This document shows positions 2,035 through 17,105 of a stretch of DNA of 64,000 bases, in pieces (the stretch's first letter is position 1; every line of letters begins with the position of its first letter). Where the stretch lies: sequence record PV730302.1; one strand, given 5' to 3'. Origin of the DNA: a phage. A program made the translations under genes and the position numbers. The notes under the pieces are model-generated. The model was not told the DNA's origin. It saw only the letters and a list, made by a program, of their open reading frames with translations, and did no database searches.

Positions 2035-3202
2035 TCACAAAATTCATATTTTCTAAATCGTTTTCGATATCAGCAGCGCTTTGGGTATTTCCGCTTAATT
2101 TAACAGCAACGTTCTTAGAGACACGAGAGTTAATAAGGTCGTTCACTGCATCGTCAACTTCTTTAATAGAATTAATTGCACCAAGCTTATACTTATTCTC
2201 GATTGCTTCACGGAACGGAGCATGTTTAAACAGCGGTCCCCAGAACTCAACACAATCGGTAGCTTTAGCACGCCATGCTTTTTCTTCTTGAACCATTTCG
2301 CCTGTGGTTTCGTCAAGGAATGCACGATTATACCAACCAGCTTTAGGTTTCACAACAAAACCGATATCAGTAGCCATTTCAAGCAATCCACTGAATGGGT
2401 CAATGCCGCCTTCGAAGTTAACGGTGATAGGGAATGTTGATTTCTCTTTAACCGTACGAGATTTCTCTGCCTTCAGTGTGAAGTCGTAACCTGTGAGCTC
2501 GGTACCATCTTTAACCTGACGTTTAGAGATAAAGAACACGGTAGAAGCAGAGTACAGAATACCAGTACCACCACCCATAATCTCTTTAGGATACATTCCA
2601 CCAATTTCCATAGCCGTATGGTTGATTGCTACGCAAGGAATATCCTTGATGGTCAGATAAGGCGTTACGATACGGAACAGAGATTTCAGTGACTTAGCAC
2701 GAGTCATATCACCTACAACTTTCTCGTTCAAAGCATCTTCGGTTTCTTTCTTAGAAGCGGTGTTACCAATGGAGTCGATAAAGATAATAACCTTTTCGCC
2801 ACGAGTAATTTCTTCTAACTGGTTGGTCATATCAACCTTCAGCTGTTCGACTGACTGGATTGGTGTATGAACCACACGTTCCAAATCAACACCCATCGAA
2901 CGGAAATAAGATTCTGAAGCACCAAACTCAGAGTCATAGAACAAACAAATTGCGTCTGGATATTTCTTCATATATGCCGCAACCATGGTAAGTCCAAACA
3001 ACGTTTTAAAGTGTTTAGATGGAGCAGCAAAGATTGTCAAACCTGATTGTAAGCCTGCATTCAACGCACCACCTAATGCAATATTCAGCATAGGGATACG
3101 AGTAGGAACTTCGTCACGACCATTAAACAATTTAGATTTGGTCAGGTCGGCAGTCATTTTAGAAGTAGAAGCTTTAATCAAACGGGATTTTAAATCAGAC
3201 AT
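2021..3202 (-). CDS. uvsX: UvsX recombinase (RecA/Rad51 family)
   Basis: 393 aa; ATG at 3202; high similarity to recalled T4 UvsX over the whole length. Confidence 0.93.
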   Translation of the reverse strand: MSDLKSRLIKASTSKMTADLTKSKLFNGRDEVPTRIPMLNIALGGALNAGLQSGLTIFAAPSKHFKTLFGLTMVAAYMKKYPDAICLFYDSEFGASESYFRSMGVDLERVVHTPIQSVEQLKVDMTNQLEEITRGEKVIIFIDSIGNTASKKETEDALNEKVVGDMTRAKSLKSLFRIVTPYLTIKDIPCVAINHTAMEIGGMYPKEIMGGGTGILYSASTVFFISKRQVKDGTELTGYDFTLKAEKSRTVKEKSTFPITVNFEGGIDPFSGLLEMATDIGFVVKPKAGWYNRAFLDETTGEMVQEEKAWRAKATDCVEFWGPLFKHAPFREAIENKYKLGAINSIKEVDDAVNDLINSRVSKNVAVKLSGNTQSAADIENDLENMNFVSDHD

Positions 3203-3279
3203 TATATTTTTCCATAGGCATCATTATATTTTACTCACGTTTTAAGATAGGGTAATTATATCACTTCACATTTACAGCG

Positions 3280-3411
3280 TTATTTTATTCCTCGGTTGAT
3301 AGCCTTATCGACTATCTTCCGGACTTCTCGTTTCTCGAGCCAGCATAATAATAACAAGGCTCCGAAAGAGAATAATAACAAACCTATAAAAAGCAATAAA
3401 GGACCTAGCAT
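3280..3411 (-). CDS. small hydrophobic peptide (43 aa), putative
   Basis: ATG 3411-3409 with GAGGA SD 8 nt upstream; translation MLGPLLLFIGLLLFSFGALLLLCWLEKREVRKIVDKAINRGIK; below the ORF-track size cutoff. Confidence 0.3.
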   Translation of the reverse strand: MLGPLLLFIGLLLFSFGALLLLCWLEKREVRKIVDKAINRGIK

Positions 3412-4298
3412 ACTACGTCCTCATAACTTGGCATTTCGTGCTCAGAATGGATATGGGCGCCGAAATAAATGAATTCAGCTAGACCAGGATGGAATACTAA
3501 ACCTGGGTTCTCATGATAAATGATATGAGGTCTTGATTTCAGAATCTGATAATATTCAACCTTACTCGGTTTGAATTTAATAATCTCTACATCAGGACGA
3601 TAGTCTTCACGTTTAAACGAATCATTCGGGTCGGTTATATAAAGACGAGCACCTTCAGCCGCAGCTTGGTCTACAACTCTTTCGAATTGATAACACTTAT
3701 CCGAAATACGGAATGGGTGGAAAATACCATCAATTTTAATAGGCGCTAGGCCTTCAGAGTAACGCTCAATTACTGCCGGATTAATTACCTTTTGGTCTAC
3801 AAAAATCTTATCAGAGGACGCACCTCGTGACACCAGGACGTCTTTCTGACATTGATTCAGGACTGTGGTATAAATCGAACGTTCAACTGAGGACACGTCG
3901 GTATCAATAAACTCGTCGATATAATAACGAGGAACTTCAGGGTCCATTGTAATGTTAAAGTTGAATTGTACAGTCTGAGTGCCATCATAACCTGTGATAT
4001 CGGTTACCAATCCTGAGCAGTCATAGTATTCGATTAACGAATCAACAACGAACTCGTTTTCAGACCAAAAATGTTTACGAGTTTCATAAGCATTTTCTTT
4101 ATACCAAAGCGGTACAAAATTCAGTTCAGGAAATAATTCAATGCATTCTTTGATATCGCTCGAATTTCTAGGATAAGCCAGATAATCACCTGGGCAAGCA
4201 CGGTTTAAATGGAGTTGAAAATTACCGTCCTTAAGGACGGCATATTCACCTGTTTCGTAACTACGCATACTGAAAATAGGAACGATAAACAAACTCAT
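3405..4298 (-). CDS. hypothetical protein (297 aa) occupying the T4 beta-glucosyltransferase slot
   Basis: ATG 4298-4296 overlaps the gene 42 stop (ATGA coupling); no similarity to recalled T4 beta-gt; no obvious motifs. Confidence 0.6.
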   Translation of the reverse strand: MSLFIVPIFSMRSYETGEYAVLKDGNFQLHLNRACPGDYLAYPRNSSDIKECIELFPELNFVPLWYKENAYETRKHFWSENEFVVDSLIEYYDCSGLVTDITGYDGTQTVQFNFNITMDPEVPRYYIDEFIDTDVSSVERSIYTTVLNQCQKDVLVSRGASSDKIFVDQKVINPAVIERYSEGLAPIKIDGIFHPFRISDKCYQFERVVDQAAAEGARLYITDPNDSFKREDYRPDVEIIKFKPSKVEYYQILKSRPHIIYHENPGLVFHPGLAEFIYFGAHIHSEHEMPSYEDVVC

Positions 4299-11350: not shown

Positions 11351-11566
11351 TTAAATTTCTATTGTTTGACGTTTAATGGTTGAATTACCATCTTCGTCTT
11401 TAGTTTTAATCATAGCCTGGAAGACTTTCTGACCTGGATGTAGCAACTTATGGAGTTCTTTTTGAAATTCTATTTGGAGCTCTTCGGAAAGGTCAAAAAC
11501 AGTTTGAGTTGGGGAAAGTCCGTATACCTCTTTAAGACGTTCACACATTTCAATTTCAAGAATCAT
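11351..11566 (-). CDS. hypothetical small protein between regA and 43, doubtful
   Basis: Open frame ending just before the terminator; no convincing SD at any candidate ATG. Confidence 0.25.
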   Translation of the reverse strand: MILEIEMCERLKEVYGLSPTQTVFDLSEELQIEFQKELHKLLHPGQKVFQAMIKTKDEDGNSTIKRQTIEI

Positions 11567-11567
11567 A

Positions 11568-11930
11568 TTAATTACCGATGGTATACTTAGACAGTAGTTC
11601 CCAGTCATTTTTCTGCTTAAAGGAAATGACACGGAAATTATTAGTGATTTCGAACAGCTCAGAGTCGTCTACGATATCAATCAGTCCCCACTCCTTAAGA
11701 AGCTGGGCAATTGAATCTCGACGTTGATAGTCTTCACCATCGATATCAACTTGGCGGCCATCCATACGTAACATCTCTTTAAAGTGGACGATATAATATA
11801 GCCCTTGCTTTTGCAGAATGTGGCAGGATTGATATAGTTTCTTTTCTTTATTATTAGCGATACCCATACGAGTTAGGGTCTCTTTCACTTTCAAGAAGTC
11901 TTCAGGTTGTTTCAGAGTAATTTCAATCAT
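11568..11930 (-). CDS. regA: translational repressor RegA
   Basis: 120 aa; MIEITLKQPEDFLKVKETLTRMGIANNK nearly identical to recalled T4 RegA. Confidence 0.9.
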   Translation of the reverse strand: MIEITLKQPEDFLKVKETLTRMGIANNKEKKLYQSCHILQKQGLYYIVHFKEMLRMDGRQVDIDGEDYQRRDSIAQLLKEWGLIDIVDDSELFEITNNFRVISFKQKNDWELLSKYTIGN

Positions 11931-11936
11931 TTTAAT

Positions 11937-12509
11937 TTACCATTCCAATGCTTTCTTTTTCAAGTCTTTTTGTTCTTTAACATTTTTGGTTACGGATTTC
12001 AGGAACTCGTCAGTAACCAGCCCTTTCATCTTCTTAAGAACCGCTGGAAGATGTCCTTTAATTTTATAAGTCTCGAGATAACGATAAGCGTCATCATTAT
12101 TAATTGAATGGTATTTCATCAATAAACGAGTAATAAAAACTACACTAACTTCATCATCATGGGCCTTAGCCCATTTACCAAATCTCTTACCCTTAGGAAC
12201 TGCGTGTAAAAGATAGTTGAAATGACTTTGGTCATCAAGTTTCAAACAGTTAACCATTGCAGCTTGCATAATGCAATCCACATGTTGGCTCAAACTATTA
12301 TCGAGCCAAAATTGATTATAGTTTTCCGATTGAGCCAGGTTACGTTGGTTCTTACCATACGTGATATCGTTCATAATAGCGAACAGTTCGTTTTCAGCCT
12401 TTTCTTTAAATGAATCGGCCAAGGCTTGAATTGCAGCGTCATTACGTGATTTCCAAGCAACTTCATGTTCGTTCAGTTCGACGTCATCATCAAAAAGACT
12501 TATAGCCAT
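11937..12509 (-). CDS. 62: clamp-loader small subunit gp62
   Basis: 190 aa; synteny between 44 and regA; ATG overlaps the gp44 3' end. Confidence 0.8.
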   Translation of the reverse strand: MAISLFDDDVELNEHEVAWKSRNDAAIQALADSFKEKAENELFAIMNDITYGKNQRNLAQSENYNQFWLDNSLSQHVDCIMQAAMVNCLKLDDQSHFNYLLHAVPKGKRFGKWAKAHDDEVSVVFITRLLMKYHSINNDDAYRYLETYKIKGHLPAVLKKMKGLVTDEFLKSVTKNVKEQKDLKKKALEW

Positions 12510-13477
12510 TGGAGCTCCAGAGCAAGTTGGATGAACAGATAAGTCATGTGAATTTCTGGGTTAGCCGCAATACCATGGTATTGGTTATTTTCACCGACAA
12601 TTTCGTACATTCTAACAATGCTTGGCCCAGGCAATTTACCATAGAGTTCGTTAGCCAGCGACATAATAAAGTTGGAATAGTCATTGACATGGCGTGGAGC
12701 TAATGCACGGAGTTCTTTAAAGTTTTTATCTTTAAGTGCAGCCACTACTTCATCGATAGGCGAATTGGTATTCATTACAATACTCAAAATGCCTGTATCG
12801 ATTTTACCACTGGATGAATAACGGTCCAGTTGGTTAACTGTTTTACGGAAGTCAGGAAAGTTTTGCTTAACTAAGGCAGCAATAACTTTAAGGTCTTCGA
12901 CTTCGATATTTTCGTTTTTACAGATTGCTACAGCACGATGAATCATTTCTTTCATCATGGATGTTTGGTCAGCTGGAGTGGCTTCACCAAATTTAATAAC
13001 GCGACAACGGGATTGAAGTGGGCCGATAATACCATCAATATTGTTTGCTGTAATAATTACAGAACAGTTTGAGGAATAGGCTTCTAAGAACGAACGAAGG
13101 TGACGTTGAGCTTCAGCAACACCAGCACGGTCGAATTCGTCGATAACAATTACCTTACGTTTACCTTCGATAGATTTGGAAGATGCAAAACGAGTAAGTT
13201 CATTACGAACGAAATCAATACGGCAGTCGGAACCGTTAACAAAAAGCATATCTGAATTTGTATCAGCACACAATGCTTTAGCTACGGTAGTTTTACCTGT
13301 GCCTGGTGAAGCAGAGACTAGGATAATGTTAGGGATTAGACCCTTATTAACAATGGCTTGGAGGGTTTCTTTATCATGCGCCGGCAGAATACACTCAGAT
13401 AAAGTACCTGGACGATATTTCTGTTCCCACATGAAGTCATTTTCATTAATAGTTAAACCATTTACCACTTTACTCAT
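12500..13477 (-). CDS. 44: clamp-loader ATPase gp44 (AAA+)
   Basis: Walker A SPGTGKTT and DEFD box; start at ATG 13477 (MSKVVNG) with GAGGAAAA SD; track start 13507 is TTG. Confidence 0.92.
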   Translation of the reverse strand: MSKVVNGLTINENDFMWEQKYRPGTLSECILPAHDKETLQAIVNKGLIPNIILVSASPGTGKTTVAKALCADTNSDMLFVNGSDCRIDFVRNELTRFASSKSIEGKRKVIVIDEFDRAGVAEAQRHLRSFLEAYSSNCSVIITANNIDGIIGPLQSRCRVIKFGEATPADQTSMMKEMIHRAVAICKNENIEVEDLKVIAALVKQNFPDFRKTVNQLDRYSSSGKIDTGILSIVMNTNSPIDEVVAALKDKNFKELRALAPRHVNDYSNFIMSLANELYGKLPGPSIVRMYEIVGENNQYHGIAANPEIHMTYLFIQLALELQWL

Positions 13478-14036
13478 TATTATTTTCCTCATTAAAATGT
13501 TTAACAATTTTATTCAATTCGTTTGCAGAATAATTATATCCATAATTTTGTAAAAGCGTACTAAATCTACCCTTTTTAGGCATACCAAGTTCTATCCAAA
13601 TCTTATGGAGCTCTTCATAATTCTGCCATATTTCAGAGCGTTGCCATTTAGAGCAATTAAGCTTATGGCTTTCGGAAAATGTTCTTGATTTTCCGGTTCG
13701 GGTGATAGACATCTTACGTTTAGATTCAGCACTGTGGAAATCTACGCCACCCGGACCGCCGGGAGCTTTATTAACACAAAGTGAACCATACTTGGCAATA
13801 CCTTCTTTAACAAGGGCCTCTTCAATAAGTTTGGCTTCTTTAAATGTATCCGTTTTGTGGACAATCTCAATACTAAACTCCCAAACACCAGGAGTTATAG
13901 CATTTTCTCGTTTGCATTTCTTAACAAATTTACCAGTACCATAATATTCTTCAGGAGTAACACGGTGTCTACCGAAATAATGGTAGACATCCTTAGTTTT
14001 GGTATTTGTTATTGTATTATGATAGCAAATGTACAT
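13470..14036 (-). mobile_element. freestanding homing-endonuclease-like gene (GIY-YIG-like N-terminal module with C-terminal DNA-binding region)
   Basis: 188-aa ORF between 45 and 44 with no T4 counterpart at this position; YICYHNTITNTKTKDVYHYFGRH resembles the GIY-YIG core, followed by EEAL and a basic C-terminus. Confidence 0.5.
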
Positions 14037-14734
14037 TAGAACGAGTGGCTTGAGCCTGCTTCCATAGCCAATACATAAGAAGCTTGTGAACCTTCAAACT
14101 TGGCTGCGAAACGAGCATCCTGACCTTCACCACGAGCCCATAGCAATACATGGTAATCAGCAGGCATCATTTTCATATTGGTTTTGTTGATAATGAATTT
14201 GAATTCAGGGCCATCATGGTCTGCAACCACTAAGGAATACAATGGACGTGCCAGGTCCTTATCATCAACTTGTTTGTAGCCATTGATTACAATTTTACCG
14301 TTGTCTACAGTGATAGCAAATGTATCAATACTCAATCCAGAGGACACACGCATCAACTGTTGGTAATCTTCGGCTTTAAGGTCAAAAATAACTTCAGCCA
14401 CCGGGAATGGAATAGCTTTGCTTGGGAATGCAATTGTACTTGGGTCGGCAATAGGCCATTTAATAGTTGAACGTTGGTCTTTAATAATTAAGGTGGTTTG
14501 GTCTTCACTTACCGAAACTTCAGCACTATCAGATACCAATGACAGAATACTTAAGAAGCCGTTCAAATCATAGATTGCGGCTTCGATATCAAAGGTATCG
14601 CTTACAGTAGCTTCACCATAACTTGCACCCGTTACTGAACGAGTTAGAATAGTGTTACCAGGCTTAAGCATGATACCTGGGTTAATACTGGAGAAGTTTT
14701 TCAGAATGTTCAGAGTTTCTTTAGAGAATTTCAT
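14036..14734 (-). CDS. 45: sliding clamp gp45
   Basis: 232 aa; MKFSKETLNILKNFSSINPGIMLK aligns along the full length with T4 gp45. Confidence 0.95.
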   Translation of the reverse strand: MKFSKETLNILKNFSSINPGIMLKPGNTILTRSVTGASYGEATVSDTFDIEAAIYDLNGFLSILSLVSDSAEVSVSEDQTTLIIKDQRSTIKWPIADPSTIAFPSKAIPFPVAEVIFDLKAEDYQQLMRVSSGLSIDTFAITVDNGKIVINGYKQVDDKDLARPLYSLVVADHDGPEFKFIINKTNMKMMPADYHVLLWARGEGQDARFAAKFEGSQASYVLAMEAGSSHSF

Positions 14735-15234: not shown

Positions 15235-15426
15235 TTAATCAAAGTATTCATAAACGAACCAGGCAGGGTTCCTGTTCGACATGATTTTATCATACTCTGA
15301 CGTAAAAGCATTTCGGAGATAATCTTCAGTAACAAGGTGTTCGTCACCGGAGAAGTTGTTAACTAAAACATATCTCTTTATTTCCGGAGCGGCCAACAAA
15401 TGCTGGCCTGTTATAAAATCACTCAT
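15235..15426 (-). CDS. hypothetical protein (63 aa; T4 45.2 position)
   Basis: Small ORF abutting gene 46. Confidence 0.45.
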   Translation of the reverse strand: MSDFITGQHLLAAPEIKRYVLVNNFSGDEHLVTEDYLRNAFTSEYDKIMSNRNPAWFVYEYFD

Positions 15427-17105
15427 TCCAACACCGTGAATCGTCCAACTTTCTTCATTTGAAGATGTTGGCCATATGCTTGTGGGTCATGGTCTCGGTG
15501 AGAGATAATGAACACGTTCGTATCCTCAAGGCTATTCAAGATGGTTGCAATGGTCTTAACGCCTTCAGCGTCAGTAGCACTGTCAAATACCTCATCAAGA
15601 ATTAACGTGCTGATATTAACACCTGATACCTTAGAAGCAATATCACGCCATGTAAAAAGTAGTGCGATATCAATACGTGCTTTCTCACCCTGTGAAAATG
15701 AAGCATAACTAAAGTCTTCACGTCCACGTGATTTAATCGTCTCATTGAATTCTTCGTCTAGGGTAAAGACGTAGTCGGCTTCCATAATCTTCAAATAAGA
15801 ATTTATCTGCTTATTAAAGATAGGAATGTATTTCTTAATAATGGAACCTTTAATACCTGTATCCTTCAACATTTCTGTCAGAATTCCACGATGGTATTTT
15901 TCCATTACCAAGGACGATTTGGTAGAGACGATTTTATCAAGCTCTGCTTGAAGCGCGGCAATCTCTTCGGCATTACTTACGAACTCAGCAGCGGCTTGGT
16001 CGATTAATACTTTAACCTTTTTAGCTTTCTCTACAGCAGTAATGGCTTGTTGCTTATGAGTAGCTATCTGAGATTTAATAGCCAGCGCTTTATTACGTTG
16101 TTCGGTTACTTGGTCCTTAATGAGCTTGAGTTCTTGGTACTGCTCATTAATCTTATCCAAAGATTTTTGAAGCTCAAAGTTCTTATCCTTAATTTTAGTA
16201 AGGATATTTCCATGCTCTTCCAGTCCTTGCATACATGTAGGACAACTACCACCGGTTTCGTATAATTTCACGACCTTAGTAAAGGTTGCCATATCATTCT
16301 TGATTGCAAATCCTTTATTGCTCAGGTCACTCATAGAGTTGCTAGGGTCATCGTCGACAATGACATTGAGTAATTCATCAGTTAGTTTTTCTATATGGCC
16401 CTTCGCAGTCCTGGCTTCTTTAACGAGCTCGTCATACATTACTTGTAGTCTTGCTGCGTTCTCGCCGGATAATTTACGTTGTCGTTCTTCGTTGTCATTA
16501 TAAATTTTAATCTGTTGGGTAATAGAATCCTGCTTAACGTCTATTACTTGGATTTGGCTATTAGTCTCGCGAATCAAAGATTTGTTCAACTTATCCATAT
16601 CCGCTAATACAGAAACCTCTAAGAGGTCTTCCACCAGCTTTCGACGCGCTGGGGTCGACAAACCCATGAAAGGGGTATACCCTGCTGTACCAAGTACGAC
16701 AATCTGTTTGAAGCTTGCATAGGACATTCCGATAAGCTGTTCAAATTCTGCTTGGAAGTCTTTACTGCTGGCAGATTCATCAAGACGTTCACCGCCACAA
16801 GAGATTTCAAAAACGTTCGGTTTTTGCCCACGTTTGATGTAGTATTCTTTGCCATCATATTCCATCCACAGTTCGACCAAAAGGTCTTTCTTGTTACTTG
16901 AATTAATCAACTGCCCTTTCTTAACATCGCGAAAAGGCTTACCAAACAGAGCAAATGTTACGGCTTCAAGGAATGTTGATTTCCCTGCACCATTTTTACC
17001 GGTGACTAAGGTCTTTTGGACCTTGTCGAGTTGGATTGTAATAGGCTGTTGGCCTACTGACATGATATTTTTATACGTTACTTTCTTTAACTTAAAAGTC
17101 TTCAT
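15423..17105 (-). CDS. 46: recombination endonuclease subunit gp46 (SbcC/Rad50-like ATPase)
   Basis: 560 aa; Walker A GKNGAGKST, coiled-coil middle, CPTC zinc hook, signature/D-loop region; ATG overlaps the upstream stop (ATGA). Confidence 0.93.
   Translation of the reverse strand: MKTFKLKKVTYKNIMSVGQQPITIQLDKVQKTLVTGKNGAGKSTFLEAVTFALFGKPFRDVKKGQLINSSNKKDLLVELWMEYDGKEYYIKRGQKPNVFEISCGGERLDESASSKDFQAEFEQLIGMSYASFKQIVVLGTAGYTPFMGLSTPARRKLVEDLLEVSVLADMDKLNKSLIRETNSQIQVIDVKQDSITQQIKIYNDNEERQRKLSGENAARLQVMYDELVKEARTAKGHIEKLTDELLNVIVDDDPSNSMSDLSNKGFAIKNDMATFTKVVKLYETGGSCPTCMQGLEEHGNILTKIKDKNFELQKSLDKINEQYQELKLIKDQVTEQRNKALAIKSQIATHKQQAITAVEKAKKVKVLIDQAAAEFVSNAEEIAALQAELDKIVSTKSSLVMEKYHRGILTEMLKDTGIKGSIIKKYIPIFNKQINSYLKIMEADYVFTLDEEFNETIKSRGREDFSYASFSQGEKARIDIALLFTWRDIASKVSGVNISTLILDEVFDSATDAEGVKTIATILNSLEDTNVFIISHRDHDPQAYGQHLQMKKVGRFTVLE

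Follow-up and report, generated by a model that had tools for sequence, protein, structure and literature searches.

The 64,000-nt phage sequence of record PV730302.1 (the window, by which we mean the whole stretch analysed) carries between replication genes 45 and 44 an open reading frame (ORF) of 188 codons. To judge from its sequence relationships, this ORF probably belongs to the T4 Seg type of homing endonuclease genes, which are free-standing ("intronless"), and it would spread by DNA breakage and repair copying. The evidence comes from the homology of its product to SegE and SegD, from its presence or absence at one and the same site in related phages, and from the coexistence of intact copies under purifying selection with decayed ones. 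The closest matches to the window by megablast were LQ5 (99%), SHP1, and MX01, and by sequence the source belongs to the genus Dhakavirus (JS98-like coliphages). The features discussed are the following.

13470..14036, minus strand: putative free-standing endonuclease gene, ATG start, 188 codons plus TAA, product of 188 amino acids (aa)
13761..14036, minus strand: predicted GIY-YIG catalytic domain, aa 1-92 (beta 2-11, beta 17-25, alpha 36-47, beta 52-62, alpha 65-86)
13689..13739, minus strand: basic linker with NUMOD3-like motif FHSAESKRKMSITRTGK, aa 100-116, with a second similar helix at aa 120-131 after the motif
13479..13640, minus strand: C-terminal three-helix module, aa 133-186, common to the tail of the T4/RB3 HNH endonuclease MobD
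13436..14035, minus strand: 600-nt cassette, filled versus empty alleles, composed of the ORF and a variant gene 44 5′ end MSKVVNGLTINEND
14034..14038, minus strand: TAATG, overlap of the gene 45 stop (TAA 14038-14036) with the ORF start (ATG 14036-14034)
13470..13490, minus strand: gene 44 translation initiation region within the last codons of the ORF (GAGG 13490-13487, ATG 13477-13475, ORF stop 13472-13470)
14036..14734, minus strand: gene 45 (sliding clamp), upstream neighbour of the ORF, its product (gp45) with 99.1% aa identity to Bp7 gp45
12500..13477, minus strand: gene 44 (clamp-loader large subunit), downstream neighbour of the ORF, with the long cassette-linked N-terminus

The GIY-YIG Nuclease Domain

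An earlier reading made from the letters of the window (the sequence-only reading) had proposed a GIY-YIG-like N-terminal core with the peptide YICYHNTITNTKTKDVYHYFGRH and a conserved acidic EEAL. Both are present, the acidic pair being E72 and E73, and the assignment was borne out by the profile matches to SegE and SegD given below. The key residues of the domain are Y5 (GIY motif), Y20-F21-G22 (YIG motif), E72, and N89; as read in the protein, the motifs Y-I-C-Y5-H and Y18-H-Y20-F-G22 align to Y6 and Y17-V-G of I-TevI and also to SegE. The ORF protein matched PHROG 314, "homing endonuclease", with E=6.5e-16, while an NCBIfam scan and a phmmer search against the PDB sequences returned nothing.

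A profile hidden Markov model (HMM) built from the five 45/44-junction orthologues only (A1) was the basis of a search of 1.8 billion representative proteins, which gave 498 relatives at E≤1e-3, and a broader alignment of 70 relatives provided a second profile (A2). G22, Y31, G33, G35, and N89 are invariant in A2, and Y5, Y20, S34, E72, G93, and G94 are conserved in at least 90% of its sequences. Among these 70 relatives, 43 passed the NUMOD3 model of Pfam, 29 had a match to SegE_GIY-YIG (PF19835), and 17 had one to GIY-YIG (PF01541); the closest ten non-orthologous relatives showed only NUMOD3 in the Pfam scan, and two of the next ten showed GIY-YIG. Since the closest non-orthologous relatives thus fell short of the Pfam GIY-YIG models, A1 was tested directly on T4 SegE and SegD, within a set of 193 ORFs from 50 kb of T4. 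The sole significant matches were SegE (E=2.5e-10; 31 bits for the N-terminal domain alone) and SegD (1.4e-6), and both span the N-terminal domain. With A2, SegE and SegD were recovered at about 1e-40, I-TevI at 1e-6, and SegG at 0.03. BLASTP of the ORF protein against SegE (aa 2-92) gave 27% identity over aa 5-98 (E=1e-4). The A2 alignment pairs E72 and N89 with E75 and N90 of I-TevI; hhalign of the shallow five-sequence profile against the single I-TevI sequence gave no significant match.

The AlphaFold (AF2) model obtained with the 70-sequence alignment had a pLDDT (the confidence score of the model) of 86.8, above 90 across the N-terminal domain, which adopts a beta-beta-alpha-beta-alpha topology. 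With only 5 sequences the pLDDT was 60, and Foldseek on that model was meaningless. The published definition of the GIY-YIG superfamily comprises the two motifs GIY and YIG together with a centrally placed Arg, a Glu, and in most cases an Asn (PMC1564403). In the ORF protein GIY, YIG, Glu, and Asn are all present and conserved, and the Arg is the only feature that could not be aligned. We therefore place the predicted N-terminal domain in this superfamily on the strength of the family HMM, the transitive matches, and the modelled fold. A reading of the ORF as part of a defence system was dropped, as a PADLOC scan gave no match to a defence family.

In the RNA that encodes this domain there is a hairpin with an 11-bp stem (GAUGUCUACC...GGUAGACACC) at 13964..13991 of the window, on the minus-strand mRNA, over ORF codons 16-25. 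It covers codons of the invariant DVYHYFGRH and is kept in all five lineages. There is one compensatory pair only, the regional z-score is -1.5, and the conservation of the stem is inseparable from that of the amino acids; given the invariant codons and the single compensatory pair, it is not claimed as an RNA feature.

Linker and C-Terminal Module

The basic C-terminal region of the sequence-only reading stands for one part of that region and not for the other: residues 99-135 are basic, with an isoelectric point (pI) of 10.2, and residues 136-188 are near neutral (pI 6.1). The NUMOD3 model of Pfam scored 16.5-17 bits in the orthologues, and the A2 profile pairs the NUMOD3-like stretch with the DNA-binding domain of I-TevI (1I3J) at E=0.03. 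The last 110 residues or so are similar to aa 152-256 of MobD (34% identity, E=3e-12), a similarity that falls outside the HNH region of MobD (aa 28-50). The Pfam scan found no HNH match in the ORF protein and no family for the C-terminal module. A profile check against GIY-YIG and HNH families, which the earlier reading had put forward, thus succeeded with A1 (SegE and SegD) and with PHROG 314, and failed with the Pfam GIY-YIG models run on the protein itself and with HNH.

The C-terminal module is presumed, by its sequence, to be a DNA-binding domain, and the predicted protein is then a chimera of a SegE-type nuclease and a MobD-type tail. The helical module, W-x-x-Y-x-x-L-x-K-I-W-I-x-L-x-x-P-K-R-G-x-F...G-Y-N-Y, lies at aa 133-186 of the ORF protein and at about aa 200-256 of T4/RB3 MobD. 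It was also seen in GIY-YIG and HNH phage endonucleases and in proteins with unassigned N-terminal domains, and it may be a candidate for a new NUMOD-like DNA-binding domain.

Distribution among Phages

The distribution of the ORF was searched in 50,697 phage records, with the orthologue family set at 60% identity or more. The family comprised 11 records of 7 phages (MX01, SHP1, LQ5, Bp7, PSD2002, vB_EcoM_005, and VR20), with the ORF at the 45/44 junction every time. Identity to the window ORF was 97-98% in MX01, SHP1, and LQ5, 78-80% in Bp7 (78% in PSD2002), and about 65-66% in VR20. Among the matches listed for Dhakavirus, 9 rows (6 phages) carried the ORF and the other 31 (H10-H40) were without it, with the flanks matching in two pieces; in Gaprivervirus it was found in the two records of VR20 only, out of 34, which makes one phage in about 30. 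T4, which according to the sequence-only reading has no gene here, indeed has a 50-nt spacer only, and the intergenic insertion proposed by that reading agrees with a junction that is empty in T4 and in most Dhakavirus and Gaprivervirus genomes. The junction was also filled in three metagenomic T4-like contigs: L015, with an ORF 55-57% identical whose GTG start abuts the gene 45 TAA; L016, with a VR20-like ORF; and L019, which is described with the decayed copies. In all, the 45/44 site is in use in five lineages. An ORF found in all relatives and devoid of endonuclease motifs, the contrary outcome named by the earlier reading, is not what the searches returned.

The ORF is annotated as "hypothetical protein" in MX01, Bp7, SHP1, PSD2002, and VR20, and in the annotated records fetched its product was "hypothetical protein" or "unknown", with the exception of vB_EcoM_005, where a truncated copy is merged into the gene 44 coding sequence (CDS). 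The consulted portion of the function table in the LQ5 genome paper assigns no function to a gene lying after the sliding clamp and before the next entry for the clamp loader, and no description of an endonuclease at the 45/44 junction was found in the literature searched. An intron-encoded endonuclease was considered and dropped, as the Rfam scan matched no RNA at the locus, group I introns included.

A second annotated homing endonuclease gene was observed in MX01 (L001:4575-5291) and Bp7 (L006:4588-5304), on the opposite strand, between rpbA/45.2 and gene 46. The window is without it (about 15400-15430), and there 45.2 directly abuts gene 46. It constitutes a second presence/absence polymorphism, at most 1.5 kb from the first.

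Filled and Empty Alleles

Alignment of alleles with and without the ORF delimits the 600-nt cassette. The sequence that it replaces is 84 nt long and consists of the hairpin-bearing stretch of 60-61 nt that separates genes 45 and 44, followed by codons 1-8 of gene 44 (MLTVNNNE). In the empty Dhakavirus alleles the 60-61-nt spacer with its hairpin is conserved, and the N-terminus of the gene 44 product (gp44) is MLTVNNNEF. Homology between filled and empty alleles resumes at TTCATGTGGGAACAG, downstream of the cassette; gene 44 of the filled allele has the cassette's own first 14 codons, and its gp44 is longer by six residues.

Seven filled and six empty Dhakavirus alleles, compared over 2.5 kb, had zero fixed differences outside 13436..14035. 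The flanks of the window are identical to those of the ORF-less phage ABTNLS3 for 174 nt into gene 45 and for 308 nt into gene 44. MX01 has an ORF 98% identical to that of the window, with flanks only 87-97% identical, and in Bp7 gp45 and gp44 are 99% identical to those of the window, with an ORF of 78-80% aa identity and a synonymous divergence (dS) of 0.84. The flanks being mosaic in these three comparisons, the cassette moves independently of them. The earlier reading had seen in the insertion the behaviour of a mobile endonuclease gene, and this is supported by the presence or absence of the ORF between near-identical genomes, by the use of the same site in five lineages, and by the decayed copies.

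In VR20 the arrangement is different: the ORF is cleanly inserted in the spacer, downstream of the hairpin, with its own GGAG Shine-Dalgarno (SD) sequence, and 18 nt are replaced. The N-terminus of VR20 gp44, MATVINGLTVNESDF, is similar to the cassette-linked N-terminus of Dhakavirus. In Dhakavirus the left joint lies exactly at the gene 45 stop codon, and the hairpin and the ORF's own SD have therefore been lost. This suggests that the Dhakavirus cassette came from a VR20-like arrangement, the left joint having formed illegitimately and the right one by homology within the conserved FMWEQKYRP codons.

The spacer hairpin itself is conserved in T4, Dhakavirus, and Gaprivervirus, as GGGAGGA..TCCTCCC in JS98-type phages, GGGGCTTCGGCCCC in Gaprivervirus, and AGGGCTTCGGCCTT in T4, and it is deleted in the window-type filled allele (window 14039-14100 compared with the empty alleles of JS98, L002:2561-2621, and T4, L017:2368-2417). 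It is followed by a TATAAT-like element in T4 and in JS98-type phages. Two gene 44 5′ ends were found among the ORF-less Gapriverviruses, a long one (UPEC01 type), encoding the same N-terminus as VR20, and a short one, MLTVNDKEF (P479 type). UPEC01 (L013:960-1140) and P479 (L014:960-1140) have an identical spacer despite the different gene 44 5′ ends. The long form may be what a lost cassette has left behind, the allele that originally received the cassette, or an immune variant.

Selection and Decayed Copies

The ratio of nonsynonymous to synonymous substitution rates (dN/dS) between intact copies was 0.06-0.33, which corresponds to purifying selection. Two copies have decayed. In vB_EcoM_005 a 3′ deletion has fused residues 1-156 of the ORF in frame to gp44; sequence alone leaves this fusion either as a natural decay intermediate or as an assembly artefact. 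In L019 (Logan contig of SRR28261677, positions 2860-3465) there is a frameshift after codon 7 or so (MYNCYH...), and the product called from an internal Met is without the GIY motif; this copy is probably a pseudogene, unless the assembly is in error. Gain, constraint, and decay, as read from these sequences, are the life cycle expected of a homing endonuclease gene.

Further details were observed in vB_EcoM_005. The fusion corresponds to an annotated "clamp loader" CDS of 478 aa (L004:1101-2537; NC_055783.1, 105632-107068), the deletion took the 3′ end of the ORF together with the first six codons of gene 44, and an internal ATG (MLLNGLTINENDF...) could still yield a free gp44.

Gene Layout and Expression

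The minus-strand replication cluster of the window is of the T4 type, in the order 43, regA, 62, 44, the ORF, 45, rpbA, 45.2, and 46. The 188-aa ORF at 13470-14036 that the sequence-only reading had described was confirmed on the minus strand with an ATG start, as were both of the overlaps that it had noticed: the start of the ORF overlaps the gene 45 stop in TAATG, and its 3′ end overlaps the gene 44 start by 8 nt, ATGAGTAA, the ORF TAA lying 5 nt past the gene 44 ATG. For gene 44 we took as start the ATG at 13477 and not the upstream TTG of the mechanical ORF list. The GC content of the ORF is 35%, against 40% in the neighbouring genes.

No SD was found upstream of the ORF ATG in the window sequence, and no T4 late-promoter motif, TATAAATA, occurs near the ORF; the promoter scan returned sigma-70-like matches only, which were unconvincing. 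In view of these three negative results, low-level reinitiation at the gene 45 stop is favoured: most likely, as judged from the sequence, ribosomes that terminate on the gene 45 message would reinitiate at TAATG and so translate the ORF. The motif AATGAGGAAAAT is the native gene 44 translation initiation motif in empty Gaprivervirus alleles and in T4, and it is the same in the window.

Elsewhere in the cluster, a 93-aa ORF with a GTG start was observed at 11351..11632 (minus strand), between gene 43 and regA, overlapping the 3′ end of regA. It is the counterpart of a 71-75-aa hypothetical protein of JS98, Bp7, and SHP1 ("similar to RB32 ORF047c"), and its counterpart is without annotation in T4, MX01, and ABTNLS3.

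Proposed Mechanism and Alternative Explanations

The seg genes of T4 lie between other genes and in the orientation of their neighbours, are often cassettes that lack a promoter, and frequently embed the expression signals of the downstream gene; their enzymes cut ORF-less relatives, and the genes are copied in by double-strand-break repair with co-conversion (PMC2988022). The ORF agrees with all the structural properties published for them (PMC2988022). In the scheme that we propose, the ORF would be a promoter-less cassette within the 45-44-62 transcription unit, and its product a catalytically active enzyme that homes directionally. When an ORF-carrying phage and an ORF-less relative infect the same cell, the enzyme would make a double-strand break in or near the 45/44 junction of the recipient, and repair of the break from the ORF-carrying genome would copy the cassette into it. 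The cassette's own gene 44 ribosome-binding region and first 14 codons would keep the essential clamp loader expressed, and its gene 44 5′ end would probably destroy the target of the enzyme in the carrier genome. The mosaic flanks and the variant gene 44 5′ end linked to the ORF are indirect pointers to a nuclease-dependent, preferential inheritance with co-conversion. Since filled and empty alleles differ consistently in the replaced segment alone, the simplest model would place the target in the 84 nt of spacer and gene 44 5′ end, where the cassette would destroy it.

Several observations weigh against this interpretation. The ORF protein was not matched by the Pfam models GIY-YIG (PF01541) and SegE_GIY-YIG (PF19835) even at E≤10, its NUMOD3 score was 13.5 bits (E=0.068), below the cut-off of 20.4, and Foldseek against the PDB gave no match, also with the model of pLDDT 86.8. 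No profile column pairs unambiguously with R27 of I-TevI, the central catalytic Arg, although the same is true of the active SegE; all five orthologues share R23 and R25, but across the clade only H24 is conserved. The UPEC01-type phages, with a cassette-type gene 44 5′ end and no ORF, complicate the inclusion of this segment as a strict part of the mobile unit. With the characterised Seg enzymes the cut usually falls hundreds of bp away from the gene of the enzyme, and some cut their own genome too (PMC2988022), and a target inside the replaced 84 nt is inferred only from the lack of fixed flanking differences. Finally, ordinary homologous recombination between coinfecting phages, with no nuclease bias, could be the source of the pattern of presence and absence.

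As to the target, a narrower proposal is that the endonuclease is directed at the translation initiation region of gene 44 (the 45-44 spacer, the first codons, or both) and that the cassette swaps in a resistant, functionally different 5′ end. We regard it as tentative, possible but on the unlikely side. If it were true, the swap would remove a hairpin conserved from T4 to JS98 and couple the translation of gene 44 to that of the ORF, the selfish element would also rewire clamp-loader expression, and the UPEC01-type ORF-less Gapriverviruses would have either a "footprint" allele that is immune or the allele that originally received the cassette.

The ORF might also be a relic with a GIY-YIG fold, inactive and either domesticated as a DNA-binding or regulatory protein or in decay, and kept for the ribosome-binding site and start of gene 44 embedded in it. 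The SD and ATG of gene 44 lie inside the 3′ end of the ORF, an arrangement that favours the retention of seg genes (PMC2988022), and the unaligned canonical Arg, the failure of the Pfam GIY-YIG models to detect the protein, the decayed copies of vB_EcoM_005 and L019, and the lack of an SD or promoter found for the ORF point the same way. However, Y5, Y20/G22, E72, and N89 are all intact, the dN/dS of 0.06-0.33 holds over the whole protein with the nuclease domain included, the identity of the flanks to those of an ORF-less phage points to recent transfer, and SegE, whose motif is of this variant too, has enzymatic activity (Table 1 of PMC2988022). We consider a relic improbable.

Less probable still is that the ORF is an ancestral, nonmobile accessory gene in the replication cluster with a history of repeated loss, the patchiness being due to deletions and not to gains. 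The locus of the ORF is always the same, and its divergence across genera roughly tracks that of gp45 and gp44 (66% versus 73% and 82% in VR20; 57% versus 64% and 67% in L015), as such a history would have it. But the empty alleles are not deletions: they have a conserved 60-nt spacer with the hairpin and a different gene 44 5′ end, and the two states are therefore alternative alleles exchanged by recombination. Within Dhakavirus, moreover, genomes with 99% identical flanks show a 20% difference in the ORF, the flank haplotype varies independently of the presence of the ORF up to the very boundary, the homologues are homing endonucleases and not replication factors, and the GC content of the ORF is below that of its flanks. 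A chance ORF or annotation artefact, to which only the failure to find an SD or promoter of its own would lend anything, is effectively refuted by a frame that is conserved intact in 2 metagenomic contigs as well as in at least 7 phages, by a dN/dS well below 1, and by strong profile and fold matches.

Significance

A Seg-type homing endonuclease thus remains our preferred interpretation, and with it a function is proposed for a gene labelled "hypothetical protein" in at least 7 sequenced phages, several of which have been put to use in phage therapy or suggested for it. To the insertion sites catalogued for Seg-type elements, the 45/44 junction within the core replication cluster would be a new addition. 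The window phage and ABTNLS3 provide a natural, near-isogenic pair of filled and empty alleles for the study of homing, target-site choice, and effects on clamp-loader expression, and the combination of a GIY-YIG domain with a MobD-type tail could yield a new specificity for engineering. The understanding of homing endonucleases is unchanged, the ORF being one more representative, hitherto without a label, of a familiar class of mobile genes.

Comparison with Known Endonucleases

By sequence and modelled fold, the ORF belongs with the SegE-like, free-standing GIY-YIG homing endonucleases. It shares with SegE the GIY-YIG subtype, of signature Y-x-G-x-H ... (D/E)-x-Y-x-G-(S/T)-G ... E ... N-x-x-P-G-G-x-G-G, and both are free-standing, intergenic genes of about 200 codons, co-oriented with their neighbours and carrying the expression signals of the downstream gene. 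The insertion site is different (inh/uvsW in T4 for segE, 45/44 for the ORF), the C-terminal half of the ORF protein is unrelated to that of SegE and MobD-like instead, and the ORF is translationally abutted to its upstream gene, whereas SegE has its own promoter and translation initiation region.

With SegD, SegG, and I-TevI the ORF protein has in common the two-domain architecture, nuclease, linker, and DNA-binding part, and, as candidates, the NUMOD3-like helices, but it is without a zinc finger and without a helix-turn-helix of the I-TevI type. Unlike I-TevI it is not intron-encoded, it has one helix and not two between beta2 and beta3, and R27 is without an alignable counterpart. MobD of T4/RB3, a free-standing and uncharacterised HNH enzyme, shares the motif W-x-x-Y-x-x-L-x-K-(I/L)-W-I-x-L-x-x-P-K-(K/R)-G-x-F; here the catalytic domain of the ORF protein is GIY-YIG and not HNH, and only the presumed DNA-binding tail is in common. 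To judge from these sequences, the union of a GIY-YIG domain with a MobD-type tail is a case of domain shuffling of a kind already known among phage homing endonucleases.

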